Part shown: positions 10,198 to 23,768 of the stretch, in pieces
Layout: the number at the start of each line of letters is the position of its first letter
Numbering within the stretch: the stretch's first letter is position 1
Source: Bdellovibrionales bacterium
GTDB taxonomy: Bacteria > Bdellovibrionota > UBA1018 > CAIMNF01
Reading direction: 5' to 3'
NCBI GenBank assembly: GCA_018266375.1
Contig: JAFEAO010000006.1
Coordinates: forward strand, 222,930-286,929
Length of the DNA stretch: 64,000 nucleotides
The notes under the pieces: generated by a model
Seen by the model: the letters and a program-made list of their open reading frames with translations, nothing else
Databases searched by the model: none
Told to the model about the DNA's origin: nothing
Made by a program: the position numbers and the translations under genes

Positions 10198-10234
10198 TTT
10201 CGCCCTCAGTCTGTCGTGTTCTTGTACACCTTGG

Positions 10235-10252
10235 AAATAGGCTAACCTATTT
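10235..10252. promoter_or_regulatory. Perfect 7-bp inverted repeat (AAATAGG-ctaa-CCTATTT) in a divergent promoter region, candidate operator
   Basis: Seen directly in the sequence between the divergent genes at 10197(-) and 10296(+). Confidence 0.25.
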
Positions 10253-10295
10253 TAGTTATTAAGAAAAGGTGCCGAAGAGAGGATGGGAGAAGGTA

Positions 10296-11216
10296 ATGTT
10301 CAGCATCACAGATTATCGCATGGTAGTACTTTATGCGGGCTACGCATTGATCGCGGCCGCCGTGTTTTGGTTCACGCGGATGCTGCTCAGCGAGCAAGAG
10401 AACATTTCCGCATCCGAAAATTTGCGCGAGATCGATGGCAAGCGCACTTCGAACGCACTCGTGCGCGCGACGCGTCCGTTTTTTTCGCAGTACATTCTCC
10501 CATCCGTTCGCGGACGTCCCGGACTCGAAGAGTCGCGCGTAAAATATCGCCGTAAGATCATCAGCGCAGGCGTGAAAGACGAAATCACCGCCGACGAGTT
10601 TATTGCTTTTAAAATCATGTTGATCGTCGTGTTCCCGCTCATCGCCGGATTCGTCCGCGCGCTCAGTCTCTACGACGTTCCAAAAGAAATTTTCCCGATT
10701 CTCCCGATCCTCGGATATTTCTATCCGGATTTCTGGGTGAGCAGCCTCATCAAAGAGCGTCACGTACGGGTCCTGAAGTCTCTCCCATTCGTCGTGGACT
10801 TGCTTGCGCTCTCGACCGAGGCGGGCTTAGATTTCATCGGTGCGATCCAGAAAGTCGTGGAAAAAGCTTCACCAAGCCCGCTCATTGACGAACTCGAACA
10901 AGTGCTCAAGGAAATCAAAGTGGGTTCATCACGCGCGGAAGCGCTACGCGAGATGGCGTTCAGGATCAATATGCAGGAAGTGAACTCTTTCATCGCGGTA
11001 CTTGTGTCAGCGGATCAGATGGGTGCGTCGATCGGTAAGATCTTGCGCCAGCAATCGGATCAAATTCGGACTCTGCGGTTCGTTCGGGCGGAAAAAATGG
11101 GTGCATTATCCGCACAGAAGTTGATGATTCCAACCTTTGTTCTCATTCTCCCTGCCATTCTTGCAGTAATGCTGGGGCCGTTTTTTTTACATGCGGTGAT
11201 CGGAGGTAACGGATGA
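10296..11216 (+). CDS. tadC: TadC-like pilus assembly membrane protein (T2SS F domain)
   Basis: Topology of TM helices flanking a cytoplasmic GspF-like domain (LPFVVDLLALSTEAGLDF...AEALREMA). Start chosen at MFSITDY (10296) with a GGAGAAGG Shine-Dalgarno. Confidence 0.7.
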   Translation: MFSITDYRMVVLYAGYALIAAAVFWFTRMLLSEQENISASENLREIDGKRTSNALVRATRPFFSQYILPSVRGRPGLEESRVKYRRKIISAGVKDEITADEFIAFKIMLIVVFPLIAGFVRALSLYDVPKEIFPILPILGYFYPDFWVSSLIKERHVRVLKSLPFVVDLLALSTEAGLDFIGAIQKVVEKASPSPLIDELEQVLKEIKVGSSRAEALREMAFRINMQEVNSFIAVLVSADQMGASIGKILRQQSDQIRTLRFVRAEKMGALSAQKLMIPTFVLILPAILAVMLGPFFLHAVIGGNG

Positions 11217-11560
11217 TGATTACCCGTAAACACGATCAGGCGGTAGTGGTTCACGCCGGCAAAATAGCCAACACCTTTGTTTCCCGCCTCGTGGGCTGGA
11301 TCGGCAAACGTCAGGCTCATCTGGGCGAGGGGCTTTGGTTTACCAACAGCAACAGCGCACACATGTGGATGATGAGCATTCCGATCGACGTCGTTTTTTT
11401 GAGCCGCGACCGGAAGATCGTAAAAACGTTTTCGAACTTGAAACCTTGGAGGCCGCTCCCGGTGTTGTGTATTGGCGCGGATTCCATGCTAGAGCTTCCT
11501 GCCGGTACGGTGGAGACGCTGAACTTGAAGAGTGGGGAGGAATTGTGCATCGACTCGTGA
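11213..11560 (+). CDS. DUF192 (COG1430) family protein
   Basis: About 115 aa with a PIDVVFL...LELPAGT pattern typical of DUF192. ATGA overlap with tadC. Confidence 0.55.
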   Translation: MMITRKHDQAVVVHAGKIANTFVSRLVGWIGKRQAHLGEGLWFTNSNSAHMWMMSIPIDVVFLSRDRKIVKTFSNLKPWRPLPVLCIGADSMLELPAGTVETLNLKSGEELCIDS

Positions 11561-13182
11561 TCGTCGCCGGTCCTAACCGGGGCAGTTCATTCGCATTAGT
11601 GGACGGAGACAACTCGATTGGTCGTCAAATAGACAACCATATCGTGCTGACTTCCGTCAAAGTGTCGAAGCGTCACTGCACGGTATCGGTGAATCACGAA
11701 GACGTGATCCTGACCGACGCGGGTAGCACGAACGGCGTGTTCGTGAACGGTGCCTTGGTCAAAAAGCATATTTTGCGTCCGGGCGATCGCGTGAGCGTCG
11801 GTGATTTCGTGCTGGAGTTGATCCGGGTCTCCTATATGACCGGCGCGGCCCCAAGTCAGAACGCTCAACAGATGCCGATGATCCAAAGTCACGGCCAAGT
11901 TTATCCCATGAGCCAGATTGGCGGCGGCGCACTCACCGAGAACACCAATCCGGGTCTCGAAGTGCCGAAGAACGCGCTCGAGGCTCCGGACGATCCGGTT
12001 GGAAAAATTCAGTTCGCGTTTGAAAATCGTTTCATGCCGATCTTCTACGGAATGCTGCTCAAGACCGAGTTCCGCTCGCTCGTGGGCGCGCTCATGGTCG
12101 GAGTGGTCACGCTTTCGGTGGTGGGTTCGATCATGCCGATGCAGGACCTTGCGATGAAGAGTATTCAGCGCGAAGGTTTGATCCGTGCAAAAGTGGTCGC
12201 GCGCGAAATCGCGGATCGTTTTTTGCCGGCGCTCGCTAATCACGCCGAGTCCCAGATCGATCTGTCTCTCATCGAGAACGAAGAGAGTATCAAGATGGCG
12301 GCGATTACCAATACGAGTTTGCAAATCATCGCGCCGCAATCGCGAATCAATCAGTTACTTGCCGGCGGCAAGGAAGCGATCTTCGCCAACTACATGGCAA
12401 AAGAATTTAAAGAAGGCCGCGAGCGCGGTAGCGGGCTCATTATCGGCGATACCGTCGCGGTTTACGTCGAGCCAATCAAAGTTACCGATCCTCGCCAGGT
12501 CAAAACGACGGTTCCGGCGATGGTCGTGGTAGCGGTCGACTTCTCGAATAACTTGATGGCGACCGGAGAGATGGGTGTCACGTACGGCGTGGGATTCGTT
12601 ATTGCAGGGATAGCGGCGTTCTTGGCGTACCTGATTATTCTACGTTTATCGTTTAAGCCCTATGAGGTTTTAAACGATGATCTGGACCAAGTTTTGCGTG
12701 GGGAATTGCCTCGCGTAACGCATGAGTTTAAAATAGAAGAAACGGCTGCGCTTTGGAATAACATCAACGCCGCCATTCAACGCATTCCACGATTGGGAGT
12801 GGGGGGCGATTCAGCCAGCACGGGCGAAACGATCAATGTCGACTGGGACATGGAATTGGCGGCGGTTCGCGCGCTGAGCGAAGCTTCAGGGTTTGGAATG
12901 ATCGGTTTTGATCAAAATTTAACGGTGCAGGCGCTGAACCCTCAGTTCGAGGAAATCAGCGGTATGGGCATCAATGCAATCGGACAGACAGTAAATCAGG
13001 CTGCTCGAGATCAGGCGTTTGTAGCGCTGGTCAATGATCTCATGGAGCGCGTGCTCGGCTCACCTTCACGTTCGGCGCTGGATGTTTTCGAGTTCAGCGG
13101 TTTGAACTATCAGGTGGTGGCGACCGGAGTCGGCCCGGCTTCGCAATCGGGCTTGTCGTTAGTATTCAAAAAGAAGGAGTGA
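11545..13182 (+). CDS. FHA-domain membrane protein
   Basis: N-terminal FHA domain (IGRQIDNHIVLTSVKVSKRHCTV...DAGSTNGVFVNG), at least two TM segments and a large extracytoplasmic region. GTG start at 11545 with a GGGGAGG Shine-Dalgarno, overlapping the DUF192 stop. Confidence 0.75.
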   Translation: MHRLVIVAGPNRGSSFALVDGDNSIGRQIDNHIVLTSVKVSKRHCTVSVNHEDVILTDAGSTNGVFVNGALVKKHILRPGDRVSVGDFVLELIRVSYMTGAAPSQNAQQMPMIQSHGQVYPMSQIGGGALTENTNPGLEVPKNALEAPDDPVGKIQFAFENRFMPIFYGMLLKTEFRSLVGALMVGVVTLSVVGSIMPMQDLAMKSIQREGLIRAKVVAREIADRFLPALANHAESQIDLSLIENEESIKMAAITNTSLQIIAPQSRINQLLAGGKEAIFANYMAKEFKEGRERGSGLIIGDTVAVYVEPIKVTDPRQVKTTVPAMVVVAVDFSNNLMATGEMGVTYGVGFVIAGIAAFLAYLIILRLSFKPYEVLNDDLDQVLRGELPRVTHEFKIEETAALWNNINAAIQRIPRLGVGGDSASTGETINVDWDMELAAVRALSEASGFGMIGFDQNLTVQALNPQFEEISGMGINAIGQTVNQAARDQAFVALVNDLMERVLGSPSRSALDVFEFSGLNYQVVATGVGPASQSGLSLVFKKKE

Positions 13183-13188
13183 TGGAAC

Positions 13189-14223
13189 TTGGAATCCGCT
13201 AAGGTCACCCGATTTAAAGCGACCGATGTCCCTCGCCAGCAAGGCGAGGTGGGACGGATCCGTGTCATCAAAGGACCGGACAAGGGAACCACTTATGTTC
13301 TGAAGGACTCGTCGCTGGTCATCGGCCGCGGCGAAGACGTCGACGTCATGATCACCGACATCAAGGCATCACGCGCTCACGCGCGCCTCGATTACACGTC
13401 GGGTGGTTGGGTGATGAGCGACCTGGGCTCGGCGAACGGAATTTTCTTCCAAGGCGAATACATCCGCAAGTTCGGCGTCGCCAGCCATGACCACTTCACG
13501 GTGGGCGAAACGATTTTAGAGTTTTTGACTCATACCGAGTCCACTCGCGTGTTGATGGCGCCGACCCGTCCGGCTCAAGCCGTCGTGCAACAAGACCGCG
13601 CTCTCATCGCTCAGCGGATGAAAGTGCAATCGATGGCCAAAGGTCCGGAGATTACTCAAAAAGCCGGCGCCAAAAAAGAAGATCCGAAGAAGATCATGCT
13701 CTATTTGGCGCTTCTCGCCGGCGGTTACTACTTTATGTTCATGGACGATAATCCGCCTCCGAAAACCCAGGAGACGAAGAAAGAATCGAAGGTCGAGAAA
13801 GATCAAAACCGCGGGCTTGCGTCTTATCTGCCACCGGGCGTGGGTCGCGAAGCCGCGAAGAGCGCCGAACAAAGTTATTGGGAAGGTTTCCGCGAGTATC
13901 GCGAAGGCCACTACTTGCGTGCCAAGGAACACTTCGAGCTCGCTTTGCAAGTGAATCCGGCGCACGATCTCGCGAGATTTTATTTGAAGAGCGCGGACAA
14001 GGAAATTGACGACGAAGTGAAGAGGATGCTGATGGCGGCGCAGAAGGCGACCGTCGCCGGACGTCTGCGCGAGGCCAAAGGTTATTATGAAACCGCGATG
14101 CGTGCGATGTTTAACGATCGCAGCAATCCGGATTATATCGAAGCGGAGGAAGCTCTGAAAAAGCTCACGAATGAATTGACGGAATCAAACCGTGTACCCG
14201 CCTCGGGGGAGGGTAAACAATGA
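13189..14223 (+). CDS. FHA-domain protein with a TM segment and TPR-like C-terminus
   Basis: FHA motif (IGRGEDVDVMITDIKASRAHARL...DLGSANGIFFQG), TM segment IMLYLALLAGGYYFMF, then a helical repeat region. TTG start with an AAGGAG Shine-Dalgarno 8 nt upstream. Confidence 0.7.
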   Translation: MESAKVTRFKATDVPRQQGEVGRIRVIKGPDKGTTYVLKDSSLVIGRGEDVDVMITDIKASRAHARLDYTSGGWVMSDLGSANGIFFQGEYIRKFGVASHDHFTVGETILEFLTHTESTRVLMAPTRPAQAVVQQDRALIAQRMKVQSMAKGPEITQKAGAKKEDPKKIMLYLALLAGGYYFMFMDDNPPPKTQETKKESKVEKDQNRGLASYLPPGVGREAAKSAEQSYWEGFREYREGHYLRAKEHFELALQVNPAHDLARFYLKSADKEIDDEVKRMLMAAQKATVAGRLREAKGYYETAMRAMFNDRSNPDYIEAEEALKKLTNELTESNRVPASGEGKQ

Positions 14224-16532
14224 GTGCATTAATGAAACTGGAAGTATTTCAGGACGGACAGCTTCTTCAAGAAGTGCCGGTGGATGAAAACGAATTGTGG
14301 GTGGGTCGCGACCAAGGCTGCGTCATCCGGTTGGAAGACCGGGCGATATCTCGCCGGCACGCGCTTTTGAAGAGCACCGATCGCGGCATCGAGTTCGAAA
14401 AGAAATCGAAGTTCGGTTGGGTAAAGGTCAACGGGCAGGACGCAACCCAGATTACCTTGAAATCGGGCGACCGTGTGGAAATGGGTCCGTATGAAATCCG
14501 GGTATCGGGTGCCGATGCTCCGGCGGGTGCAAGCGCGTCCGCGGATGTGATTCAAATGGCTGCTCCTGCCAACACTCCGAACGGAATGACCGTCGGTCCT
14601 GTTGTCGAATCTCCGATCCAACTCAACGATCCGCTAACCGGCGAACCCGTTCCGGGCGTCGAAGCATTGCCAGCCATCGAAATTCCGGCGTCGAATCCGC
14701 CCGAGCACACCAAGGTGCTCGGTCAAACGGCTGAAATCGCAGTCCCAAGCAATGAAAACGGCAATGAGGTCGGCCTCGACGTTCAGAAGATCGAAAAGAC
14801 AAGCGCTGGCGGAAACACCGGCGCGATGGATTACGGCGCGGTGTCGAGCGACGGCGCGACCAAAGTGTTCGGTCGCAAGGATCCGATCAAAGCGATTCTT
14901 CAATTTAACGACGGTCAAGCCAACGTTTCTCAGTATGAACTGAACGACAACGAAATCGCGATTGGCCGTTCGCAGCAGTGTCACGTTGTTCTCGAAGATA
15001 AAAAGTCTTCGCGTAAGCATGCGATCATCCGCCGTGAAGGCGATAAGTATTACTTGAAAGACTTGGGCTCCGCTAACGGTACCCAAGTCAATGGCTCGCG
15101 CGTGGACGACGTCGAACTTCAGAGCGGCGACCAAATCCAAATCGGCGAAACCGCATTCGCATTCAAAATCGTGCAAGCCGACTATGAAATCAAAAAGGAA
15201 GGTTTCATCGCGGTTCCACAGCACGAGATGCCTCCACCGCCGCCAGTCGGCTCGCATCGGGACGCGAACGTGATCGAGTCGTTGGACTATATTCCTCCCG
15301 ATGTGGGCAATGCTCCGACTCCGCAGCCGGAATTCTCAGCTCCGAAAGCCGAAAAGAAATCGTTGATCGGTAAAGCACTCGATCGCTACCGCGCGATGAA
15401 TACCCGCCAGCAGATCATCTGGGGTATCCTGGTTCTCGCCAGCCTGTACGTACTGATGATGGACGAGGAAGGCGATCATCAGCCGGCACGCCTCAACACC
15501 GGCCTCGTTCAAAAGTCGAAAGCGACCAAGCCGGGCGATAGAAAACCGGGTGAAGGCCAGAGCTTCGACGCGTTGACCGCCGAGCAAAAACGTTACATCG
15601 AGACTCAGTATCAGCTCTCGTTCGATCTTTATAAAAACCGCGAGTACGATAAAGCGCTTCTCGAAGTGGGCAAGATATTCAGTCTCGTGCAAGACTACAA
15701 GAACGCACGCGAGATCGAAGCGTTTTCCCGCGAAGGTAAACGTAAGCTTGAAGCTCAGGAAGAAGAACGGAAACGTAAGGAGCAGGAACGTCAAAGCCAG
15801 CTCAAACTTCAAAGCTTGCTCGAGCAAGCCGACATGCTCATGAGCAAAAAGCGATTCCACGAGGCCGAAGCGCTCTTCCCTGAAATCGAATTGATTCAGC
15901 CGGAGAACGCGGCGGTAAACGAATGGCGTAAGATCATCATGGCCGAAGGCGAGCGTCTCGATCGTGAACGCGAAGAGCAAGAGCGTCAGCAAGCGCTCGT
16001 CCGCCAGGGTTGGTCGAAACTCCAACGCGCGGTCGATTACAAAAAGGATCACGACTATCAAACCGCACTCGACGAACTTAACGAGATTGACGAGCTCGGC
16101 GTTCAAGATAGAAAATTGAAGAACGCGGTCCGGGACGAAGATTCCGCGATCCGCGGTCGCATCGCGGCTGAACGCGATCCGCTCCTCGTTCAAGGTAAAG
16201 AACTCGAGCAAAGCGGACAGCTCGCCGAAGCTTACAAGGCTTACGAGAAAGCGCATACTATCGATCCGGACGACAAGGTGTCGGAACAGGGCATGGCCCG
16301 TATTCACGGTAACCTGACCGCCCGGGCGAAGGCTCTATATATAGAGGGCGTCTTTGCCGAAAGCTATAACGATCTGGAGACGGCGGAGCGCAGTTACCGC
16401 GAGATCCTGAGCGTTGTGCCCAAGGACGACGAATATCACGCCAAAGCGGAACTCCGCTTGAAGCGCGTGACTTCATTCCGTAGACCGGCGGGCTCGGCGA
16501 GCAACGCTGGCTCCGGGGAGTCGCCTCAATGA
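14220..16532 (+). CDS. Tandem-FHA (two FHA domains) membrane protein with a long coiled-coil/TPR-like C-terminus
   Basis: FHA 1 (VGRDQGCVIRLEDRAISRRHALL). FHA 2 (IGRSQQCHVVLEDKKSSRKHAII...DLGSANGTQVNG). TM segment IIWGILVLASLYVLMM. Charged coiled-coil region (EERKRKEQERQSQ). ATGA overlap with the upstream gene. Confidence 0.8.
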   Translation: MSALMKLEVFQDGQLLQEVPVDENELWVGRDQGCVIRLEDRAISRRHALLKSTDRGIEFEKKSKFGWVKVNGQDATQITLKSGDRVEMGPYEIRVSGADAPAGASASADVIQMAAPANTPNGMTVGPVVESPIQLNDPLTGEPVPGVEALPAIEIPASNPPEHTKVLGQTAEIAVPSNENGNEVGLDVQKIEKTSAGGNTGAMDYGAVSSDGATKVFGRKDPIKAILQFNDGQANVSQYELNDNEIAIGRSQQCHVVLEDKKSSRKHAIIRREGDKYYLKDLGSANGTQVNGSRVDDVELQSGDQIQIGETAFAFKIVQADYEIKKEGFIAVPQHEMPPPPPVGSHRDANVIESLDYIPPDVGNAPTPQPEFSAPKAEKKSLIGKALDRYRAMNTRQQIIWGILVLASLYVLMMDEEGDHQPARLNTGLVQKSKATKPGDRKPGEGQSFDALTAEQKRYIETQYQLSFDLYKNREYDKALLEVGKIFSLVQDYKNAREIEAFSREGKRKLEAQEEERKRKEQERQSQLKLQSLLEQADMLMSKKRFHEAEALFPEIELIQPENAAVNEWRKIIMAEGERLDREREEQERQQALVRQGWSKLQRAVDYKKDHDYQTALDELNEIDELGVQDRKLKNAVRDEDSAIRGRIAAERDPLLVQGKELEQSGQLAEAYKAYEKAHTIDPDDKVSEQGMARIHGNLTARAKALYIEGVFAESYNDLETAERSYREILSVVPKDDEYHAKAELRLKRVTSFRRPAGSASNAGSGESPQ

Positions 16533-17278
16533 GTTCTAGCGAGTCCTGGGTCAAAACGCGTCTTCCGTTCAAATGGGTCGAGGGATTCCAGCTTCAGGGC
16601 GGACTCCCGGTCCAAGAGGATTACTTCGAGGTCAATGCCGATCGCGGGATTTTTATTTTGGCCGATGGCTTTGGCGGCGGCGCGGGAAAGTACGCAGCCG
16701 AAGTCGCGGTGAAAGCCGTACGCCAATTCTTGGAACAGGAGGCGGGCGACTTGGATGCGACCCTTCCGTTCGAGTTGCGGCCGTATTTTTCGCTCGCGGG
16801 AAACGTACTTTTCAACGCGATTTCTTACGCTAATCAAAAACTCATCGCCGCTAACAAAGGCAAAAACCCGCTGAACTCGGGCGGAACTTCTTTGATCGCG
16901 GGATACCTCGAGGGGCGCTTGCTCTCGGTCGCGAACGTCGGCACCTGCAGTTTGTTTTTATCTCGTGACGGCAAGAGCAAAGAAATTTTGGTCCCGCGCT
17001 CGCTTGCAAAACAAGTGAACCCGTTCGCGGACAGCATGGTAGAAGGCGCCGGCGTGCCTTTGATGAGTCTCGGAACCGCTCGCCAGCTCGAGCCCGAGAT
17101 CGTGGAGATCGAAGTTCGCGAAGGCGACCAGCTTTGTTTTCAATCGGCGCCGGTCACTGCCGAACTTCGCGATCAGTTGTTTCAATTGAATTCCAACAAG
17201 GGATTAAGCCAAATCATTGACGCTCAAGATACGGCGGGCATTCAGGGCAACGCTAGCCTGATTTGGACGGCATTCTAA
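16529..17278 (+). CDS. PP2C-family Ser/Thr protein phosphatase
   Basis: PP2C motifs (FILADGFGGG, GGTSLIAGYL, VANVGTCSLFLSRDG), about 250 aa like Stp/PrpC phosphatases. ATGA overlap with the FHA gene. Confidence 0.75.
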   Translation: MSSSESWVKTRLPFKWVEGFQLQGGLPVQEDYFEVNADRGIFILADGFGGGAGKYAAEVAVKAVRQFLEQEAGDLDATLPFELRPYFSLAGNVLFNAISYANQKLIAANKGKNPLNSGGTSLIAGYLEGRLLSVANVGTCSLFLSRDGKSKEILVPRSLAKQVNPFADSMVEGAGVPLMSLGTARQLEPEIVEIEVREGDQLCFQSAPVTAELRDQLFQLNSNKGLSQIIDAQDTAGIQGNASLIWTAF

Positions 17279-17320
17279 ATACACTCTAAATATGTAATAA
17301 TTAGAGTGAGGGGGAAATCT

Positions 17321-17563
17321 GTGTTTAGGGCATTTTCTCGGAAATTGAAGGTGATTTTACACCGCCGTAAGAAGCGTCGCTTGGGCAACCAAGGGCAAGC
17401 TTTGGTGGAGTACATCATTCTCCTCACGATCGTGATGGGCGTGGTGGCCTATTTCCTGAGTAAAATGACGGGATCCTTTGATATGACGACCGCCAAATAC
17501 GGGGGAGTAATCGAGAAGCAGATCCGAACAGGCTCTGCTCCGGCAACGGTATGGAATCGATAA
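17321..17563 (+). CDS. flp: Flp-family prepilin
   Basis: Basic leader, then G/QALVEYIILLTIV (Flp G-XXXXEY processing motif) and a hydrophobic helix. GTG at 17321 with a GAGGGGG Shine-Dalgarno (the ORF track begins at an upstream GTG at 17306). Confidence 0.6.
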   Translation: MFRAFSRKLKVILHRRKKRRLGNQGQALVEYIILLTIVMGVVAYFLSKMTGSFDMTTAKYGGVIEKQIRTGSAPATVWNR

Positions 17564-17844
17564 TTGCTAAACGCAGGAAGACGCAGTCCGGCCAAGCCGT
17601 ACTCGAGTACATCCTGCTCTTGGCGATCATCGTGTTTTTATATTCGCTGGTTTTGAACTCGATCTCCGGCTCGAACGGCTTCGAGAACATGAAAAAGCCG
17701 CTGACCAAGGACTTCAAGTATACCTATCAATACGGTCATCCTGAGGCGAGGGGTCAAGAAGATGGCGGTCCCAAGTTTATCCCGCAGCATCACGACGGGG
17801 CCCAAAACTTCAGAATTTTCATTAATCCGCCGATTAATGAATAG
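17551..17844 (+). CDS. Flp/TadE-like prepilin (second pilin)
   Basis: SG/QAVLEYILLLAIIVF motif after a basic leader. About 97 aa. Confidence 0.55.
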   Translation: MESIIAKRRKTQSGQAVLEYILLLAIIVFLYSLVLNSISGSNGFENMKKPLTKDFKYTYQYGHPEARGQEDGGPKFIPQHHDGAQNFRIFINPPINE

Positions 17845-17846
17845 AG

Positions 17847-18461
17847 ATGAGCCGTAAAAAGTATAAACAAATCAACGACAAATGCGAAAGCCGGGCGAGC
17901 AAGACACACTTGCGTTCGAACGCACTCGCGCGCTCACAAAGCGGACAAGCGCTGATCGAGTTCGTTCTCGGACTGATGATCGTCATCTCGTTTTTCTTTT
18001 TCTACGTGAAGATGGCGGCGGTGTTCGCCGTCGGAAATTATATTCACTACGCAACCTTCATGGCCGCACGCGCCTACTCATCCGGCGCAGGCTCGCCTGA
18101 CGAGCAAACCGCGAACGCCGAAGCGGTGTTGCAAAAAATGGTCGCCGGCCGTTTTAAAACTCTTTTGAAGCCGTCGTCGGATTCGGGCGGCTCGGTTCCC
18201 GGTGCAACCGTCGGCCCGGGGCCGTGGTATCAAGACGATCCGGCCCAAGATAATTGGAACCAAGGCGTCACATACTCGTATTCGACGAAAGTCGCCCTCT
18301 ACCCGTGGAGTAAAGGCAATCAGGCGATCACCATGAAACTCACCAGCGAAAGCTGGATGCGCCGTGAAGATACCGAAACCGAATGTAATGCCAAAAAAGG
18401 CCGCATTCAAGGCGGGATTCGTCTGCAAAACATTTCTGTGGAGTGGGACAATGGTTGCTAA
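17847..18461 (+). CDS. tadE: TadE-like pseudopilin
   Basis: SG/QALIEFVLGLMIVISFFFF TadE-type N-terminus. About 200 aa with a Gly/Pro-rich middle region. Confidence 0.65.
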   Translation: MSRKKYKQINDKCESRASKTHLRSNALARSQSGQALIEFVLGLMIVISFFFFYVKMAAVFAVGNYIHYATFMAARAYSSGAGSPDEQTANAEAVLQKMVAGRFKTLLKPSSDSGGSVPGATVGPGPWYQDDPAQDNWNQGVTYSYSTKVALYPWSKGNQAITMKLTSESWMRREDTETECNAKKGRIQGGIRLQNISVEWDNGC

Positions 18462-19020
18462 GACAATAACCCACGCTCAACGTATTCAAGACAATTCGGG
18501 ACAAAGCATCCTCGAAGTGGTGTTCATTCTCCCGTTCCTGTTTTTGTTCGTTGGCATGCTCTACAAGATCAATATGGCGATTCAGATGGCGATCAACAAC
18601 ACGCAGTATGCTCGCTCGCAAATTTACGTGCTGACCGCGAATTCTCCGGAGTACCCGCGTTACGCGTTCCGTTTCCTCGAAAAGGACTTGTTCGGGATGA
18701 ACAACCAGGATCGGATGGTTCTCGGCGTGTCTGATCCGAAGGCGATCAGCCAAGCGGCTTCAAACGACTCGTCGATCGAACCGTTGCCGCAAACGACCAA
18801 GATCAATCGCGCGGGCACGACCGTCAAAGGCAGTAACGAACGCGGTGAAGTGAATCTGAGAAATGAAATCCGGGTTCGAAATACGTCCGCGATTTGCACG
18901 CAGTTGAACTCGGTCGGTTCGAAGACTCCTTGGAGTTCGTCGAACGTGGTGGGTTTGAAATCTAAGCGTTGGCCGTTTGGCCAAACAGTTTGCCAGTACA
19001 GTGGCAAGAAGGAAGGTTAA
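18451..19020 (+). CDS. TadE/TadF-like pseudopilin
   Basis: SG/QSILEVVFILPFLFLFV motif. Start moved to MVAKTIT (18451), which has a GGAG Shine-Dalgarno. The ORF-track start at 18364 overlaps tadE. Confidence 0.6.
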   Translation: MVAKTITHAQRIQDNSGQSILEVVFILPFLFLFVGMLYKINMAIQMAINNTQYARSQIYVLTANSPEYPRYAFRFLEKDLFGMNNQDRMVLGVSDPKAISQAASNDSSIEPLPQTTKINRAGTTVKGSNERGEVNLRNEIRVRNTSAICTQLNSVGSKTPWSSSNVVGLKSKRWPFGQTVCQYSGKKEG

Positions 19021-19022
19021 CG

Positions 19023-19862
19023 ATGAATAGTCGCGCGATGACACTCTCATTATTCATGGCCGGTGTGGCGGTGTTCTTTGTCATGAGTTCGGTCTCCAGC
19101 ATCGAAGACGAAGCCAAAAAAAAGTTCGGCGACGACGTCACGGTCCTGGTCGCGAAGAACGACATCAAAGAGATGGACTCGATCTTGGACGGGATGATCG
19201 AACCGCGCGTGGTCCCACGTCGTTTCGTCGAGCCGTCGGCGATCGCGTTCAACACCCTCGTCAAAGAAGACTCCCATGACTACGCGATGGAAACCAAGCG
19301 CATCATCGGTAACGTCGCGATCGTCCCGATCAAAAAGGGCGAGCAGCTGTCATTGAATAAAATCACCGAACCAAGTATGCGTACGGGTCTTGCGCCACAG
19401 GTGAGCCCCGGCAAACGTGCGATCTCCGTCAATGTCGATGAAACCTCGGGCGTCGCCAAGCTCATTAAGCCAGGCGACCGCGTGGATATCATCGCGGTGA
19501 TCGATCCGGGCAACGCGGTCGGTGGCCGCGACAACAAGGTCGCGAAGACGCTTTTCCAGGACATTGTTGTATTGGCGGTCGGACGCAATATTACCAACAA
19601 CCTCGCGCGTAAGATCGAACTTGACGCGATCACTGGCAAGGCCAAAGTCCGCTCGCTTACCGAGTTCGACGGATTTAGTTCCGTCACCTTGGAAGTGGAT
19701 CCGAATCAGGCTCAACTCTTGGCTGCGATCACGACGAGCAATATGAACCGTTTGGTGTTTACTCTACGGAACAACGACGATACCGACCGCACGAACTTGA
19801 TGTCCGTGCGTGCCGTTGATGCTTTGAGCGACGGATTGCGTATCCCGGCAGGAGGCAGATAA
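19023..19862 (+). CDS. cpaB: Flp pilus assembly protein CpaB/RcpC
   Basis: N-terminal TM anchor, then SAF/CpaB domain (IAVIDPGNAVGGRDNKVAKTLFQDIVVLAVG). Start MNSRAM at 19023 with an AAGGAAGG Shine-Dalgarno. Confidence 0.8.
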   Translation: MNSRAMTLSLFMAGVAVFFVMSSVSSIEDEAKKKFGDDVTVLVAKNDIKEMDSILDGMIEPRVVPRRFVEPSAIAFNTLVKEDSHDYAMETKRIIGNVAIVPIKKGEQLSLNKITEPSMRTGLAPQVSPGKRAISVNVDETSGVAKLIKPGDRVDIIAVIDPGNAVGGRDNKVAKTLFQDIVVLAVGRNITNNLARKIELDAITGKAKVRSLTEFDGFSSVTLEVDPNQAQLLAAITTSNMNRLVFTLRNNDDTDRTNLMSVRAVDALSDGLRIPAGGR

Positions 19863-21568
19863 TGAGAAACTTGCCGCTTTACCTCATCCCGAGCTTTATC
19901 GTTGCGTCGTTAGTTCTCGTGGGTGGCAAAGCTCACGCGCAAGAAGCGGGGGTACCGACAGTTGAAGCTGCGCCGACAACGGAGTCGGGTGAAGCCGAAA
20001 AGGGTGACGTCACTAAACCAAAGTCCCGCCGCAAAGTCGTCGAAACGAGAACCGGCGCGTCTAGATACACGAATGACCAAACCGAGCGCGAAGCCGATCA
20101 TCGTCCGGAGCTGGTTGCCGTTGGTGTCGATAAACTCATCGACATCGATCCGGCAATTAAGATCGGTGATCGCCAGGGTTCGATCTGGGAATCGAATAAA
20201 AACGTCGCATTGGTGCAGCTGGTGTCGGTCGGTAACAGGAAGCAGCTCATCTTGAAAGGCGTCGGCGAAGGCTCGGCGAACATTTTCATCCGGGATCAAG
20301 CGGGCAACGTCAAAATCGTGATCGACGTCACCGTCGCCAAGCAAAATATCATTAAGTACTACGAGCGCCTCAAAGAGAAGCTTAAGGAAGTCGAAGGTAT
20401 CACGATCGCGATCGAAGACCAAAAGGTCGTCATTCGCGGTGAAGTGTATACTGTGAACGATTACGGCACGATCGTCAACGAGATCGCCGAGAAGACCTAC
20501 GGGGATGCGGTGATCAACAAGGCGACGATCTCGACCGTATCTCTAAACCTGCTTGCTAAGAAAATCGCCGAAGACGTGCAAGTCTTCGCTCCGACCGTGA
20601 CCGCGACCGCATTGAACGGCCGTGTGATCATGGGCGGTTCGGTCGAGAGTGCCGCGGTTCGTGACCGTGCTCTCAAGCGCGCCGAGTATTACATTCCGGT
20701 GATTCGCGTGAGCGATCCGGTGGCATCGGCAACTAACATCGAAAAGAACGAGAAATCGCTCCAAATCATTCAAAACGACATTCAAGTCAATCCTCCTCCG
20801 CCGAAACGTGATTCGAAGCTCGTACGCCTGAGCCTTTACTTCGTGGAGTTGAGTAAGGACTTTTTGAAATCTTTTGGTTTCAAATGGCAGCCGGGATTTA
20901 CCGCGGATCCACAGATCTCGATCGGGAGCGCGACGGATGGGACGACATCGACCAGCAGCTCGGGCGGTTTTACCTTTTCGGGAACGCTTTCGAGTCTCTT
21001 CCCGGCGTTGAACGCGCCGCCTTCGAACGCGGGCTACGGCCGGATTTTGAAACAAGCCAATATTATCGTGAAGAGCGAGCAACAAGGTACGATTCGGGAC
21101 GAGCAAACCATTCCGACTCAACAGCTCGGTCCAAACGGAACCGTCGGCGCGGGTACCCCCGTCACGGTCGGCTTTTTGGCGATCATCACCCCGACCATCC
21201 TGCAAGGCCAGGACGTTGACCTCAACATCAATTTGACCCAGACTAACGCGCTTGCAAAGCAGCTGAACAATCAACCGTATACCGCAACTCACAAAGTTGA
21301 AACGCGTTTGTATCTCAAGTCAGGCGAAGTGGCAGCAGTCGCGGCGGTCAATAACCAGGACGTTTCGACGTCGTTTAACCGCGATGATCCGAACGCCGGA
21401 AGCTTCGGCGCGAGCACGAAGCCGCTCTTTACTTTGCAACGTTCAAAAAGTTCGTCGAACAAGCGCGGACAGTTCGTCGTGTTCGTTTCGCCGCAAATTA
21501 TCGATAGCGCGTCGGAAGGAACGGAAGATCTCAAAAAGAACTTCCGCATGCCGACCTCAACAAGATAG
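19862..21568 (+). CDS. cpaC: Flp pilus secretin CpaC/RcpA
   Basis: Signal peptide. N-domain repeats. C-terminal secretin domain (KPLFTLQRSKSSSNKRGQFVVFVSPQII). Confidence 0.85.
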   Translation: MRNLPLYLIPSFIVASLVLVGGKAHAQEAGVPTVEAAPTTESGEAEKGDVTKPKSRRKVVETRTGASRYTNDQTEREADHRPELVAVGVDKLIDIDPAIKIGDRQGSIWESNKNVALVQLVSVGNRKQLILKGVGEGSANIFIRDQAGNVKIVIDVTVAKQNIIKYYERLKEKLKEVEGITIAIEDQKVVIRGEVYTVNDYGTIVNEIAEKTYGDAVINKATISTVSLNLLAKKIAEDVQVFAPTVTATALNGRVIMGGSVESAAVRDRALKRAEYYIPVIRVSDPVASATNIEKNEKSLQIIQNDIQVNPPPPKRDSKLVRLSLYFVELSKDFLKSFGFKWQPGFTADPQISIGSATDGTTSTSSSGGFTFSGTLSSLFPALNAPPSNAGYGRILKQANIIVKSEQQGTIRDEQTIPTQQLGPNGTVGAGTPVTVGFLAIITPTILQGQDVDLNINLTQTNALAKQLNNQPYTATHKVETRLYLKSGEVAAVAAVNNQDVSTSFNRDDPNAGSFGASTKPLFTLQRSKSSSNKRGQFVVFVSPQIIDSASEGTEDLKKNFRMPTSTR

Positions 21569-21584
21569 TGGGAAGAAGGGTTAG

Positions 21585-23744
21585 ATGGGTCACATTATCG
21601 CGATCGTCGGAGGCAAAGGTGGAGTCGGGAAGAGCGTATTCGCCGCTAACATGGCGATTGCGTATCAACTCAACTTCAAGCAGCGCTCTCTGATTGTAGA
21701 TCTGGATTTCCAATCCTTGGGCGATCAAAACATCATTTTAGGCATGAACCCGCCTAAGAACATCGTCGATTTGACCAAGACTCAGGTCCCTCAGTGGGAT
21801 CCGAAGACGCTTGCGCCTTTCATGATGAACCATCAGCAGGGGTTCAGCTTCATCGGCGCGCCTCGCGAGGCGGCCGTCGCTAAAGACATCGACCTTGACG
21901 GCCTCGGAAAGTTCTTCAAAGCAGCGACTCAGATTTTTCCGTGGGTGATCGTGGACTGCGGCAGCGGTACCGAGCCTCATGCGTTGAAAGCGCTCGAGCA
22001 AGCGACGTTGATCTTCGTCGTGACCACACCGGATGTGATCGTGGTCAATCAAACCCGCCGGATTATGTCGAAGATCCAGGAACTCCTGTTTCCGCCGGAA
22101 ATGATTCAAATCATCATCAACCGTTACTCGCAAACCAACTTGATTAACCCGCAGATGATCCAAAAGAACTTGGGTAAAAGCCCGTTCTTCGCGATCCCGG
22201 AAGAAGCCGCGACCTGCGAGGCGTCCCTCGCGAAGAGTCAGCCGTTTACCATCGCTAACCCGGGCGCGCCGATCTCGCGCGCGTTCTCCGACCTTGTCCG
22301 CCGCATCGATCAAGCCAAGATGCTCGAACAATTGGCGAAGCTCAACAAACCGACCGGTACCGCAAAGAAGCTCGAAGTCATTCAAGGTGGAGCGAGTGCC
22401 AGCATTATGCCTGCCCCAACCGACGGTGGAATCATTTCGCGCTCGCGTTCGGCTCCGGTCGATCCATGGACCGCGATGAAGTTACGCGTGCACCGCGCGC
22501 TTATCGACGTCGTCGACATGAAGAAGATGAACGCCGATATGAACGATCCTCGTCAGAAGGACGTCTTGCGCGCGAAGACCACGAAAGCGATCGTCGACGT
22601 TCTGAATAAAGAAGATTTGGCTCAGTTGTGCCCGACGCGCGAACACCGCGCTCAACTCGTCAAAGAGATCTTGGATGAAGCCTTGGGCTTAGGACCGCTC
22701 GAAGATTTGCTCGCCGACGATACCGTGACCGAGATCATGGTCAATGCGCGCGACCAGATTTACGTCGAGCAAGGCGGCCGCCCCGGCCTCTCGAAAGTAA
22801 CCTTTACCAGCGAACAGCAAATGATGAACGTGATCGAACGGATCGTGACTCCGCTCGGGCGCCGCGTGGATGAAAAAACTCCGTACGTCGACGCTCGTTT
22901 GCAAGACGGTTCGCGGGTGCACGTGATCATTCCGCCACTCGCGCTCCGAGGCCCGACGATTACGATTCGTAAGTTCCCTAAAAAACGGATCGTAGCGACC
23001 GACCTCGTGAAGTTCGGTTCGATGACTCAGGAGATTTCGGATTTTCTCCGTGCCTGCGTCGAAGCCAAGCTCAACATGATCGTGTCGGGTGGTACCGGTT
23101 CAGGTAAAACCACTTTGCTGAATGTATTGTCGAACCATATTCCCGCGAACGAACGGATTATCACCGTCGAGGACGCGGCCGAATTGCAGCTCGGCCAGGA
23201 CCACGTCGTGCGTCTGGAGACTCGTCCGAAAAACATCGAAGGCGAGGGTGAAGTTTCGATTCGTGATTTGATTAAGTCGTGTTTGCGGATGCGTCCTGAC
23301 CGGATTGTGGTCGGTGAGTGTCGGGGCGGCGAAGCCCTCGACATGTTGCAAGCGATGAACACCGGTCACTCGGGGTCGCTCACTACCGTCCATGCCAACA
23401 ACCCACGCGAGTCGCTTGGCCGCCTTGAGACGCTCGTGATGATGGCGGGTTTGGGTCTTCCGCTAAAAGCGATTCGCGAGACGATCGCGTCCGCGGTTAA
23501 CGTAGTCGTGCAACAATCACGTTTGGCGGATGGATCGCGTAAGGTGACCCATATTTCGGAAGTCGTCGGTATTCAAGGCGACACAATCACGCTTCAAGAT
23601 ATTTTCGTGTTCAAGCAAGAAGGTTTGGATAAAAACCGTAAGATCATCGGCCGTTTCGTGCCGACGGGTTTCATCCCAAAATTTATCGAAGAGATGGAAG
23701 CAAAGGGCATGAAGGTCTCACGCGGCCTCTTCGTGGCCAAGTAA
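21585..23744 (+). CDS. Fused TadZ/CpaE-like (ParA/MinD-type) ATPase and TadA/CpaF secretion ATPase
   Basis: N-terminal deviant Walker A IVGGKGGVGKS (ParA/MinD fold, about 260 aa). The C-terminus is a full CpaF/VirB11-type ATPase: Walker A GGTGSGKTT, Asp box, Walker B, His box (GECRGGEALDMLQAMNTGHSGSLTTVHAN). One continuous 719-aa ORF. Confidence 0.85.
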   Translation: MGHIIAIVGGKGGVGKSVFAANMAIAYQLNFKQRSLIVDLDFQSLGDQNIILGMNPPKNIVDLTKTQVPQWDPKTLAPFMMNHQQGFSFIGAPREAAVAKDIDLDGLGKFFKAATQIFPWVIVDCGSGTEPHALKALEQATLIFVVTTPDVIVVNQTRRIMSKIQELLFPPEMIQIIINRYSQTNLINPQMIQKNLGKSPFFAIPEEAATCEASLAKSQPFTIANPGAPISRAFSDLVRRIDQAKMLEQLAKLNKPTGTAKKLEVIQGGASASIMPAPTDGGIISRSRSAPVDPWTAMKLRVHRALIDVVDMKKMNADMNDPRQKDVLRAKTTKAIVDVLNKEDLAQLCPTREHRAQLVKEILDEALGLGPLEDLLADDTVTEIMVNARDQIYVEQGGRPGLSKVTFTSEQQMMNVIERIVTPLGRRVDEKTPYVDARLQDGSRVHVIIPPLALRGPTITIRKFPKKRIVATDLVKFGSMTQEISDFLRACVEAKLNMIVSGGTGSGKTTLLNVLSNHIPANERIITVEDAAELQLGQDHVVRLETRPKNIEGEGEVSIRDLIKSCLRMRPDRIVVGECRGGEALDMLQAMNTGHSGSLTTVHANNPRESLGRLETLVMMAGLGLPLKAIRETIASAVNVVVQQSRLADGSRKVTHISEVVGIQGDTITLQDIFVFKQEGLDKNRKIIGRFVPTGFIPKFIEEMEAKGMKVSRGLFVAK

Positions 23745-23768
23745 TCCGTCCAAAATTTCGCATTACGC

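Follow-up and report, generated by a model that had tools for sequence, protein, structure and literature searches.

The four closely packed plus-strand ORFs at 11545-17278 of the window, the 64,000-nucleotide stretch of a Bdellovibrionales MAG (an uncultured Bdellovibrio relative) that was analysed as a whole, encode three FHA proteins (P1-P3) followed by a PP2C-fold protein (P4). The block matches Bd0470-Bd0475 of Bdellovibrio bacteriovorus HD100, a putatively orthologous operon that has already been described and phenotyped and is needed for prey invasion. On balance, we think it probable that the block is a tadC-linked accessory module of a Kil-like Bdellovibrionota Tad machine, in which the reading of phosphothreonine would license prey entry. 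New here are the sensor architecture of P1, an invariant Thr214 in P3 and the loss of metal-binding Asp in P4. The genes concerned are:

10269..11216, plus strand: tadC, T2SSF-family inner-membrane platform protein (Pfam T2SSF 57 bits; 3 TM segments), first gene of a conserved six-gene unit; HD100 counterpart Bd0470 tadC
11213..11560, plus strand: DUF192 protein, 115 aa (Pfam DUF192 60.7 bits); HD100 counterpart Bd0471
11545..13182, plus strand: P1, predicted FHA-fused membrane sensor, 545 aa
13189..14223, plus strand: P2, FHA-TM-periplasmic TPR-like protein, 344 aa; HD100 counterpart Bd0473
14220..16532, plus strand: P3, tandem-FHA-TM-long periplasmic helical-repeat protein, 770 aa; architecture as published for Bd0474
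16529..17278, plus strand: P4, PP2C-fold protein, 249 aa (PP2C_2 26.9 bits)
17306..25789, plus strand: remaining Tad cluster with two Flp-type pilins, two TadE-like minor pilins, RcpC/CpaB, secretin, a TadZ-TadA fusion and tadB (Pfam RcpC, Secretin, CbiA+T2SSE, T2SSF; G/xxxxEY pilin motifs in the translations)
23769-24635, minus strand: papain-like protease gene

As the preliminary description had it, three consecutive FHA proteins, one of them tandem, carry four FHA domains in this block, on which ORFs and Pfam agree, and the GTG, TTG and ATGA starts that it gave for the FHA genes were found again. P1 starts with GTG, overlapping the stop of the DUF192 gene by 16 nt and with GGAGG 6 nt upstream, while P2 starts with TTG 6 nt past the P1 stop, preceded by AAGGAG. 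The starts of P3 and P4 each overlap the end of the preceding gene via ATGA, as does the start of the DUF192 gene with the tadC stop; translational coupling begins at tadC. The NCBI annotation places the start of P3 four codons later (766 aa).

In HD100 the operon consists of Bd0470 (tadC), Bd0471, the FHA genes Bd0472 and Bd0473, Bd0474, with two cytoplasmic FHA domains and an extracytoplasmic TPR part, and Bd0475, a small 'hypothetical' protein assigned by Phyre as a serine phosphatase; Tn-seq predation fitness was 0.002-0.03 for all six genes (PMC6561027; PMC12034629; bioRxiv 10.64898/2026.07.08.737194). A Bd0474::tn mutant attached to prey, with no killing or rounding (Duncan 2019, PMC6561027; PMC12034629; bioRxiv 10.64898/2026.07.08.737194). 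The Tn-seq fitness of Bd0471 was ~0.015. Bd0474 binds the TPR protein Bd0075 via its periplasmic domain (BACTH), and AlphaFold-Multimer predicts a contact between Bd0473 and Bd0475. The window was matched to this operon on its gene order, its domain architecture, sizes and the domain maps in the literature. The order is the same, including the small conserved protein between tadC and the first FHA gene, and the three-domain layout of P3 is that of Bd0474; given this match in synteny and architecture, the block belongs to an already known module. The HD100 tadC locus lies apart from tad locus 1, whereas in the window and in the related loci L001, L003-L005 and L084-L086 the tadC module is contiguous with pilins, secretin, TadZA, tadB and an RHS gene. 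The inter-FHA linker measures ~34 residues in Bd0474 vs ~125 in P3.

Fifteen related loci, spanning Bdellovibrionales, Oligoflexia, Pseudobdellovibrionaceae and Bacteriovoracaceae, were compared with the window. The pair tadC-DUF192 was found directly upstream of P1 in 15/15, which bears out the co-conservation of the FHA genes with tad genes, and all six genes (tadC, DUF192, FHA-sensor, FHA-TM-TPR, 2xFHA-TM-TPR and PP2C-like) were seen in 11 of these loci. The Tad cluster follows contiguously and in the same order as in the window in L001, L003-L005 and L084-L086; in L002, L008 and L009 tadC still accompanies the module, although the remaining tad cluster is not adjacent. The block had been described as adjoining the pilin genes, which holds for the window, but its fixed partner is tadC and not the pilins. 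It is from gene order only that we infer physical contact of the module with TadC/TadB.

The flanking methylmalonyl-CoA mutase, GH3 and ABC permease genes are also syntenic. Gene order alone is therefore weaker evidence, and this lends something to another reading, in which the block is a general Ser/Thr cassette for envelope growth and division that owes its place beside tad to history and has no action on the pilus. The actinobacterial gene order is fhaA-fhaB-pstP, which the FHA-FHA-PP2C order recalls; moreover, the best NCBIfam matches of the FHA domains are FhaB/FipA (Rv0019c) and OdhI, and P1 resembles WalK, a cell-wall sensor. All these NCBIfam scores, however, are under their cutoffs and come from the FHA domain only, no rodA, pbpA or kinase genes are found beside the block, coupling starts at tadC, and the module keeps tadC where the flanks change (L002, L008 and L009). 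HD100 mutants have defects specific to predation, with Bd0474 acting after attachment, and in the sister Kil system, too, FHA proteins go together with a TadC homologue. We consider an envelope role of this kind quite improbable.

Within the tadC-linked module that we favour, P1 is composed as follows:

11545..11829, plus strand: FHA, aa 1-95, cytoplasmic
12067..12135, plus strand: TM1, aa 175-197 (Kyte-Doolittle 2.27; model helix 175-225)
12136..12561, plus strand: predicted periplasmic PDC / extracytoplasmic-PAS-like sensor domain, aa 198-339
12562..12642, plus strand: TM2, aa 340-366 (Kyte-Doolittle 2.53; model helix 340-384)
12643..12783, plus strand: HAMP-like two-helix linker, aa 367-413, cytoplasmic (model helices 340-384 and 398-413)
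12844..13173, plus strand: C-terminal PAS, aa 434-543, cytoplasmic, with no kinase domain after it

The order TM, extracytoplasmic PDC, TM, HAMP-like linker and PAS in residues 175-543 is that of the WalK and CitA histidine kinases, and Foldseek matched P1 to WalK globally over 414 columns; no PDB chain matches P1 at sequence level. The linker carries a conserved LNDDLDxVLRGE...LW motif; because a HAMP profile gave no match on P1, we infer its HAMP-like nature. Neither HisKA nor HATPase_c was found in P1 by Pfam or in the model, and the protein stops after the PAS domain. As modelled, P1 is the input half of a WalK/CitA-type sensor (TM, PDC, TM, HAMP-like, PAS) that bears an FHA domain at its N terminus instead of DHp/catalytic domains behind it. 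The sensor part has 340 representatives among 1.84 billion. Within the top 150, the match begins at ~residue 110-200 in all near full-length proteins, and among the 150 best representatives the sensor part was seen only behind an FHA domain and never fused to a kinase. The succession of FHA, TM and extracytoplasmic or coiled-coil region that had been ascribed to all three FHA proteins consequently applies to P2 and P3 but not to P1, which has two TM segments and a cytoplasmic HAMP-like and PAS part. The features of P2 and P3 are:

13261-13527, plus strand: P2 FHA, aa 25-113 (Pfam 44.4 bits)
13693-13743, plus strand: P2 single TM, aa 169-185, segment IMLYLALLAGGYYFMFM, with a basic N side and an acidic C side
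plus strand: P2 periplasmic TPR-like helical domain, aa 186-344 (TPR_2 match below threshold)
14235..14507, plus strand: P3 N-terminal FHA, aa 6-96, atypical (pLDDT >90; ortholog alignment)
14859..14861, plus strand: P3 Thr214 codon, proposed phospho-acceptor (motif D-[GA]-x-T-[KR]-[VI]-[F/I/L])
14886..15176, plus strand: P3 C-terminal FHA, aa 223-319, canonical
15402..15461, plus strand: P3 TM helix, aa 395-414 (Kyte-Doolittle 2.49 in a 15-residue window; model helix 395-414)
15579..16481, plus strand: P3 periplasmic helical-repeat (TPR-like) domain, aa 454-754 (AF2 pLDDT >90)

P2 and P3 are bitopic, with one and two cytoplasmic FHA domains, respectively, a single TM and periplasmic TPR-like helices. 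With 17 and 16 hydrophobic residues, respectively, their TM segments are short and score below a 19-residue hydropathy threshold. In the AF2 model of the TPR-like domain of P3 short helices alternate with helices of 30-47 residues, and Pfam TPR_2 matched aa 658-685 with 37.2 bits.

All four FHA domains were recognised by Pfam with E values of 1e-11 to 1e-33; the FHA profile (PF00498, cutoff 20.7) scored 61.1 bits on P1, 44.4 on P2 and 114.9, in two stretches, on P3. The Gly-Arg, Ser/His and Asn-Gly motifs that had been expected of them are complete in three of the four: G26-R27, S41-x-x-H44 and S61-x-N63-G64 in P1, G46-R47, S61..H64 and S81-x-N83-G84 in P2, and G249-R250, S264..H267 and S284-x-N286-G287 in the C-terminal FHA of P3. 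These three pockets are fully canonical and invariant across the families. The N-terminal FHA of P3 keeps G29-R30 and S44..H47 but has K62-S63-K64-F65-G66 where S-x-N-G is expected; G29, R30, R45, H47, S63 and F65 are invariant there, with Phe for Asn in all family members. The closest structures are those of the pThr-binding GarA, FhaA, EmbR and Bdellovibrio DgcB. On the evidence of these residues, the FHA domains are genuine and their predicted phosphothreonine pocket is kept.

The same domains can also be read as protein-protein modules of a phospho-independent scaffold without a kinase, an inner-membrane ring like that of T3SS SctD (YscD/PrgH), in which P2 and P3 would connect the TadB/TadC platform with periplasm and secretin in place of missing Tad parts. 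We regard this as unlikely, although several observations favour it. Pfam Yop-YscD_cpl equals the FHA score on P1, P2 and P3, the FHA-TM-periplasmic layout is that of a scaffold, the N-terminal FHA of P3 is without the S-x-N-G Asn family-wide, and Bd0075 is bound by periplasmic domains and not by FHA. In addition, the FHA domains of GltG bind AglR and GltI in models that involve no phosphorylation (PMC11761067). Against a scaffold stands the invariance of the pocket Arg, Ser, His and Asn in families that diverge to 21-30% identity, and the ring-building motifs are absent, the periplasmic parts being helical repeats or a PDC domain. Conservation of these pocket residues is not known from SctD-type FHA folds.

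If the FHA domains read phosphothreonine, as we favour, a kinase must supply it. The absence of a Hanks kinase from the 64 kb window, noted earlier, was borne out by phmmer and Pfam: two kinase domains, run with phmmer --max on every six-frame ORF of the window, reached a best E of 0.39, the HRDxKxxN motif was not found in these ORFs, and a Pfam scan of 46 window ORFs gave no Pkinase, while the kinase queries found kinases in unrelated loci with E down to 1e-93. Nor did any of the 15 related loci hold a kinase within 10 kb, which would also suit the phospho-independent scaffold. Pseudomonas pairs an FHA protein with a PP2C as Fha1/PppA, and the same pairing is present here. A T6SS-type threonine-phosphorylation switch (Fha1/TagH, PppA), serving a T6SS encoded elsewhere, could be read from this pairing and from partial matches to TIGR03354 (TagH) of 32-88 bits. 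These matches, however, come from the FHA domain and are under the 120-bit cutoff, T6SS families turned up neither in the 46 window ORFs scanned nor in gene tables from six related loci, a PpkA-type kinase is missing, and the block is strictly syntenic with tadC. Such a switch seems to us very improbable indeed.

The best candidate for a phosphorylated residue within the favoured module lies in the linker between the two FHA domains of P3. For the P3 family 114 homologues were collected, and Thr214 is present in 115/115 family members, while the surrounding linker is hypervariable and disordered. The residues at +2 and +3 are hydrophobic. Thr214 is, from this conservation, likely a phospho-site. 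In the AF2 model it is docked on no FHA domain (pLDDT <50). It lies ~10 residues ahead of the first strand of the C-terminal FHA, and given this proximity it could instead form an N-terminal extension of that domain and not a ligand.

P4 has a PP2C fold (PP2C_2 26.9 bits, cutoff 24) and was aligned full-length to tPphA and PstP chains with an E value of 3e-7; its NCBIfam Stp1 score of 54.6 bits is under the cutoff of 230, and P4 is therefore not an Stp1 equivalog. The metal centre was compared with D25, D38, G39, D191 and D229 of PstP and the third-metal Asp of GDSR. In this residue alignment to tPphA and PstP, P4 keeps E30-D31 and D46-G47, but the Asp of GDSR is T139, the D-G of SDG reads A207-P208 and the DN motif has G240 at its Asp position, so that 3/5 metal-ligand aspartates are missing. 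The phosphatase that had been announced at the end of the block accordingly stood as to its fold, but not as to its catalytic metal ligands. Neither M2 aspartate is present in 94 of 116 homologues analysed (the best-scoring near full-length ones, mostly of the window's clade); in that clade P4 is nevertheless strongly conserved (purifying selection), with a family signature D74-L-D-A-T78-L-P-F81. Catalytic PP2C residues are kept in the orthologs of L002, L003, L008, L009 and L084-L086. As the metal-binding Asp was lost here while deeper lineages keep it, P4 of the window is probably a pseudophosphatase and not an active eraser. A degenerate P4 fits a phospho-independent role just as well, and the loss of the catalytic aspartates in most close relatives counts in favour of the scaffold; the catalytically complete PP2C that deep lineages hold in the same position counts against it.

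Taken as a phosphothreonine-reading module, the block might work as follows. An unlinked Hanks kinase would phosphorylate threonines of the module, the best candidate site being Thr214 of P3, which is invariant in the linker between the two FHA domains (T-[KR]-[VI]-[F/I/L]). In Bdellovibrio DgcB (Bd0742), a pThr-tail/FHA switch controls invasion; its kinase is unlinked, and the PknG-like Bd3148 (Tn-seq fitness 0.003), the published candidate in that parallel pathway, represents the class that could act here. Since a tether of only ~10 residues joins Thr214 to the second FHA of P3, the FHA domains would do most of their reading in trans. This reading may assemble or rearrange a P1-P2-P3 complex at the TadB/TadC platform, which the periplasmic helical domains would link to envelope partners such as Bd0075, and P1 could supply a periplasmic or envelope cue. 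The output would be a Tad activity licensed for prey entry after attachment. P4 may originally have been the eraser and, in the window's clade, probably binds the FHA proteins in a non-catalytic role.

Several known systems resemble the module in part. GarA/OdhI and DgcB possess an FHA domain switched by a phosphorylated Thr in their own flexible tail. Thr214 is disordered, lies upstream of an FHA domain and has a hydrophobic residue at +3, like pT14..V17 of DgcB; yet the Thr-to-FHA tether spans ~18 residues in DgcB and ~30 in GarA vs ~10 for the putative site, and the outputs of DgcB, GarA and OdhI are a GGDEF enzyme or a metabolic inhibitor, whereas here they are membrane scaffolds and a sensor. 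GltG of the Myxococcus Agl-Glt machine has an N-terminal FHA, a second FHA before a single TM and a long periplasmic extension, and is proposed to dock on the inner-membrane motor and a TPR scaffold (PMC11761067). Its layout is the same as that of P3, but it ends in a TonB-C-like periplasmic domain, vs the helical repeat of P3, and serves a different machine. Scores for GltG (NF033760), 37.5, 33.9 and 91.3 bits, came from FHA domains only and do not reach the cutoff of 650.

Like the module, SctD and TagH combine a cytoplasmic FHA, a TM and a periplasmic domain as components of a secretion or pilus nanomachine, and a T6SS shares the FHA and PP2C pairing. The scaffold-like likeness to T6SS and T3SS components that had been pointed out earlier thus stands for the architecture, but membership does not: TIGR02500 (SctD/YscD) scored far below its cutoff, with no ring-building motifs, and TIGR03354 (TagH/Fha) gave 45, 32.6 and 87.6 bits against 120.25. 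The window ORFs scanned included no T3SS or T6SS genes, a cognate kinase is missing, and the pocket residues are conserved here.

The module seems to be related to the FHA-rich Kil system of Myxococcus xanthus, a predator Tad-derived machine in which FHA and FHA+TPR proteins are over-represented (Seef 2021, PMC8460266). The Kil clusters as listed include neither a P1-type sensor nor DUF192 nor PP2C (PMC8460266), and the Kil ATPase itself bears an FHA domain, while the window ATPase is fused to TadZ instead. Our comparison with KilD was made with the protein at the KilD position of the Kil-like locus L060, not with M. xanthus KilD itself. An FHA-TadA fusion precedes this tandem-FHA-TM-helical-repeat protein, whose two FHA domains align colinearly with those of P3 (hhalign probability 98.9%; C-terminal match weak, E 0.002); the long T214-bearing linker is missing from it. 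The Kil FHA proteins comprise KilD, which is essential for killing, MXAN_4648, MXAN_4649 and the FHA-fused ATPase KilF, and FHA genes flank KilH, a TadC homologue (PMC8460266). The window module likewise pairs FHA genes with a TadC homologue in a predator Tad machine.

The block consists of four co-directional, closely packed genes, as read from the ORF listing and the individual junctions. They encode an FHA protein with a membrane sensor (P1, 545 aa), an FHA-TM-TPR-like protein (P2, 344 aa), a tandem-FHA protein with a TM helix and a helical repeat (P3, 770 aa) and a PP2C-fold protein (P4, 249 aa).

Genes of the block
11545-13182, + strand: P1, GTG start, 16-nt overlap with the stop of the upstream DUF192 gene
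13189-14223, + strand: P2, TTG start 6 nt past the P1 stop
14220-16532, + strand: P3, ATGA overlap
16529-17278, + strand: P4, ATGA overlap

Each of the four starts is preceded by a purine-rich Shine-Dalgarno sequence. Scanned for promoters and terminators, the region 10000-18000 gave counts equal to those expected from shuffled sequence and no terminator separating any of the genes, which is compatible with one long transcription unit and otherwise uninformative. Pfam FHA scored far over threshold in P1, in P2 and twice in P3, and PP2C_2 was only slightly over threshold in P4. Four FHA domains had been proposed in the preliminary description; their motifs are complete in P1, P2 and the second domain of P3 (FHA-C), but the first domain of P3 (FHA-N) keeps GR and SxxH and carries K-S-K-F-G in place of S-x-N-G.

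The same description held that no Hanks kinase is encoded in the window, and this was borne out: in the six-frame ORFs the best phmmer match had an E-value of 0.39 and HRDxKxxN did not occur, while Pkinase was absent from Pfam scans of 46 window ORFs. The queries were two kinase domains. They recognised each other at E 1e-80 and, in unrelated loci, matched kinases with E-values as low as 1e-93, so the negative result in the window is meaningful. These loci came from a survey of contigs with a generic FHA peptide, S[TSA]NG[TV]FVNG, which returned at least 80 loci; about 70 of those listed hold unrelated FHA genes (Chloroflexota, Myxococcota, Acidobacteriota and others) and served only as this positive control, besides supplying one Kil-like locus. 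No kinase was found within 10 kb in any of 15 related Bdellovibrionota loci (L001-L009, L011-L013, L084-L086).

Among the matches listed, homologues of P1, P3 and P4 came almost exclusively from Bdellovibrionota. In all 15 related loci tadC and a DUF192 gene lie directly upstream of P1, and all six genes were visible in 11, the others being cut by contig ends or too divergent to score. The remainder of the tad cluster directly follows the module in 7 of the 15. It is not adjacent in L002, an Oligoflexia MAG, or in L008 and L009, both Bacteriovoracaceae MAGs, and the six genes are still together there; tadC is therefore the invariant partner of the block. Thus the grounds that the preliminary description had named against its own reading, FHA motifs without the conserved residues or a lack of co-conservation with tad genes, do not apply. 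The DUF192 gene (11213-11560) separates tadC from P1 in 15/15 loci and overlaps both neighbors in the window. A literature search for DUF192 in connection with pili returned nothing relevant; the gene is apparently a Tad accessory that has gone unrecognised, and its counterpart in Bdellovibrio HD100, Bd0471, has a Tn-seq fitness of about 0.015.

The HD100 proteins were not among the best 120 matches listed for P1, P3 or P4, so that the case for orthology relies on synteny and on what has been published about the HD100 genes. In HD100 the corresponding operon is Bd0470-Bd0475 (PMC6561027; PMC12034629; bioRxiv 10.64898/2026.07.08.737194), with tadC as Bd0470, apart from tad locus 1, and Bd0472, Bd0473 and Bd0474 as FHA proteins. 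Bd0475 (228 aa) is annotated as "hypothetical", with a Phyre note in a supplementary table naming it a serine phosphatase. All six genes have Tn-seq predation fitness values of 0.002-0.03, and the Bd0474 mutant attaches to prey without killing or rounding it. In a two-hybrid assay Bd0474 interacts with the TPR protein Bd0075, and AlphaFold-Multimer suggests contact between Bd0473 and Bd0475. The Tad machine drives prey invasion, according to a 2026 preprint that mentions the FHA and TPR neighbors and leaves them unstudied (bioRxiv 10.64898/2026.07.08.737194). The window has tadC and the FHA module in one uninterrupted stretch with the pilins, RcpC, secretin, TadZA, tadB and an RHS gene (10269-27884). 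Because the contiguous layout recurs in 7/15 related loci, it is probably ancestral, and the split tadC locus of HD100 derived.

Upstream of P1, tadC (T2SSF) and the DUF192 gene each overlap their neighbors. P4 is followed by two Flp-type pilins, two TadE-like genes, RcpC/CpaB, a secretin and a TadZ-TadA fusion, and then by tadB, an RHS/DUF6531 protein and a small ORF; these genes correspond to the main Tad cluster and the hit-like locus known from B. bacteriovorus. For the first pilin, a GTG at 17321 may apply as start instead of 17306. A prepilin peptidase (Peptidase_A24) was not detected among the window pilin genes (17306-19020), in agreement with the HD100 report that PilD processes Flp; three related loci do have one at their pilin genes (L003 16704-17339, L085 13845-14387, L086 13622-14185). 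The fusion of a ParA/MinD-like TadZ to the TadA ATPase (21585-23744, 719 aa) is likewise reported for B. bacteriovorus. Between it and tadB lies a papain-family cysteine protease gene (23769-24635, - strand; Peptidase_C1, 56.7 bits) encoding a Pro/Thr/Ser-rich N-terminal region; the gene is missing from the corresponding position in L084 and L086. The RHS/DUF6531 protein (562 aa) and the small ORF with a signal-peptide-like segment (25868-27884) occupy the position that the hit-locus genes Bd0109 and Bd0108 have beside tadB in HD100, and L084 and L086 have the same RHS gene after tadB. Further downstream, two overlapping ORFs (32430-36280; 405 and 878 aa) start with signal-like segments and gave no Pfam family at E 1e-4; they were rejected as TPR partners of the Bd0075 type, since they lack a Pfam family and TPR-like repeats were not evident by eye. 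A histidine kinase (HisKA and HATPase_c) paired with a sigma-54 response regulator (48502-51659) and a separate ParA/MinD-like ATPase (46763-47794) have no evident link to the FHA module.

The AF2 model of P1 (mean pLDDT 78.8) resolves the following segments.

Segments of P1 in the AF2 model
aa 1-95: FHA domain
aa 97-144: disordered linker
aa ~175-197: TM1
aa 227-332: periplasmic alpha/beta domain
aa 340-366: TM2
up to aa 413: two-helix HAMP-like segment
aa 434-543: PAS domain

With Foldseek, P1 aligned over 414 columns with a WalK model, and the order of strands and helices in the periplasmic domain fits the PDC fold. P1 is therefore built like the input half of a sensor kinase, with no kinase domain following. 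Residues 145-545 have only 340 relatives among 1.84 billion representatives. Among the best 150 of these 340, no fusion of the sensor part to a kinase was found, and all near full-length relatives begin to match at about residue 110-200, behind an FHA domain. The FHA pocket residues are invariant in 39 of the most distant members of the P1 family. The sensor part had no match among PDB sequences at E up to 10, and no conserved Thr was found in the disordered linker.

P2 and P3 each have a single short hydrophobic segment, flanked by basic residues on its N-terminal side and by acidic ones on its C-terminal side. By the positive-inside rule, their FHA domains are predicted to be cytoplasmic and their C-terminal domains periplasmic, which agrees with the published topology of Bd0474, whose two FHA domains are cytoplasmic and whose TPR domain is extracytoplasmic. 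The periplasmic domains of P2 and P3 show no significant similarity to each other.

Segments of P3 in the AF2 model
aa 6-96: FHA-N
aa 100-219: disordered linker
aa 223-319: FHA-C
aa 395-414: TM helix
aa 454-754: confident helical-repeat domain, helices up to 47 residues

The P3 linker is unconserved apart from Thr214, which is invariant across 115 family members in the motif D-[GA]-x-T-[KR]-[VI]-[F/I/L]. This motif is like the self-ligand tail of DgcB (pT14, V at +3) and also like the ETTSVF tail of GarA/OdhI, and Thr214 is a candidate phospho-site. As Thr214 lies only about 10 residues ahead of the first FHA-C strand, binding would more likely occur in trans if it is a ligand. T12 in the N-terminal tail of P2 was rejected as a phospho-site, the residue being Thr in just about half of 10 orthologs.

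Alignment of P4 residues against tPphA and PstP revealed that the first two metal motifs are intact (E30-D31 and D46-G47). T139 stands where GDSR has Asp, A207-P208 where SDG has D-G, G240 where DN has Asp, and L26 where the phosphate-binding Arg is expected. In PPM enzymes the second metal is bound by the aspartates of SDG and DN, and catalysis depends on them. Both are missing in 94 of the best 116 near full-length homologues and kept in 16; the orthologs of L002, L003, L008, L009 and L084-L086 also have them. The degenerate group is strongly constrained, with at least 95% conservation at 67 of 249 positions. Aspartate loss in the window clade and retention elsewhere are best read as P4 being an ancestrally active PP2C that is now a putative pseudoenzyme. 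In the column of PstP S119, GDSR reads G-x-C throughout the family (Cys in 97/116, Asp in only 1 homologue), so the third-metal site is absent even in orthologs with both core aspartates. A D-L-D-A-T-L/M-P-F signature, absent from PstP, is invariant throughout the family; in P4 it occupies aa 74-81 (16748-16771, D-L-D-A-T-L-P-F), a segment missing from canonical PP2Cs, with T78, P80 and F81 present in 119/119 sequences. It resembles the Thr214 motif of P3; it could serve as another ligand for FHA domains or have a structural role. The main alternative, that the block is a purely structural, phospho-independent scaffold, is favored by the dead PP2C and the missing kinase; we consider it unlikely, as the FHA pockets are invariant, the structural neighbors speak against it and the PP2C is intact in deep lineages.

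The evidence supports a module that is part of the Tad machine, is needed for a step following prey attachment, has genuine pThr-type FHA pockets and a periplasmic sensor without enzymatic output, and binds at least one envelope TPR protein through its periplasmic helical domains. In such a module, an unlinked kinase would write pThr on T214 of P3 and perhaps on other sites, and the FHA domains of P1-P3 would read it in trans, thereby assembling or rearranging a complex at TadB/TadC. An envelope signal via P1 would tune this complex, and P4 would erase the marks or, in the window genome, bind without erasing. For the parallel DgcB switch the PknG-like Bd3148, itself predation-essential, is the published candidate kinase. 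A more specific scheme is a dedicated pThr "reader hub" gating Tad prey entry, in which P1 turns a periplasmic prey-contact cue into exposure or occlusion of its FHA domain, pThr214 of P3 and perhaps pThr78 in the DLDATLPF signature of P4 come from an unlinked PknG-like kinase, and P4, once an eraser, has become a dead phospho-site binder or protector in the Bdellovibrio-proximal clade; this scheme is rather improbable. If true, a pseudoenzyme would replace signal termination, a form of regulation little documented for a bacterial pilus or secretion nanomachine.

The module bears on how Bdellovibrio-like predators decide to enter prey to which they are attached. Work on DgcB showed that a pThr/FHA switch licenses invasion, and the module physically joins this thread with that of Tad-driven invasion: across the phylum, tadC is tied to a periplasmic sensor, to four pThr readers that are conserved and to a PP2C whose state, active or degenerate, varies by lineage, and in HD100 all of the genes are predation-essential. 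Testable handles are the arginines of the FHA pockets, Thr214 in proteins of the Bd0474 type and the natural series of active and degenerate PP2Cs. The locus is not a new kind of system, as composition and phenotypes in HD100 have been published and the FHA enrichment of Kil was noted before, and the novelty is modest because operon and phenotypes were already available. What the analysis adds is that P1 has the architecture of a sensor, that one Thr of P3 is invariant, that PP2C catalysis is lost by degrees and that the linkage to tadC extends across the phylum.

Compared with known systems, the block resembles FHA-TM scaffolds (SctD, TagH, GltG) in outline, as the preliminary description had suggested for TagH and YscD-like (SctD) components, and is a member of none; equivalog assignments to SctD, TagH, GltG, OdhI and FhaB all scored far under their cutoffs. 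The Myxococcus Kil system is FHA-rich, with two FHA proteins adjoining the TadC homologue KilH, one FHA domain fused to the ATPase, and KilD essential (PMC8460266). With this and the HD100 phenotypes in view, the block is a further example of a known, phenotypically important and mechanistically unexplained module. A Kil-like arrangement was also observed on a contig of an uncultured "Deltaproteobacteria" (L060, 797-4446), in the order secretin C-terminus, FHA-TadA fusion and a 649-aa tandem-FHA-TM-helical-repeat protein. Its ATPase carries an N-terminal FHA domain, whereas the homologous ATPase of the window, 56% identical in the ATPase part of TadZA, is fused to TadZ instead. The tandem-FHA protein is colinear with P3, which favors a shared ancestry for the FHA accessory set of Kil-like Tad systems and makes this locus a useful bridge between Kil and the systems of Bdellovibrionota.
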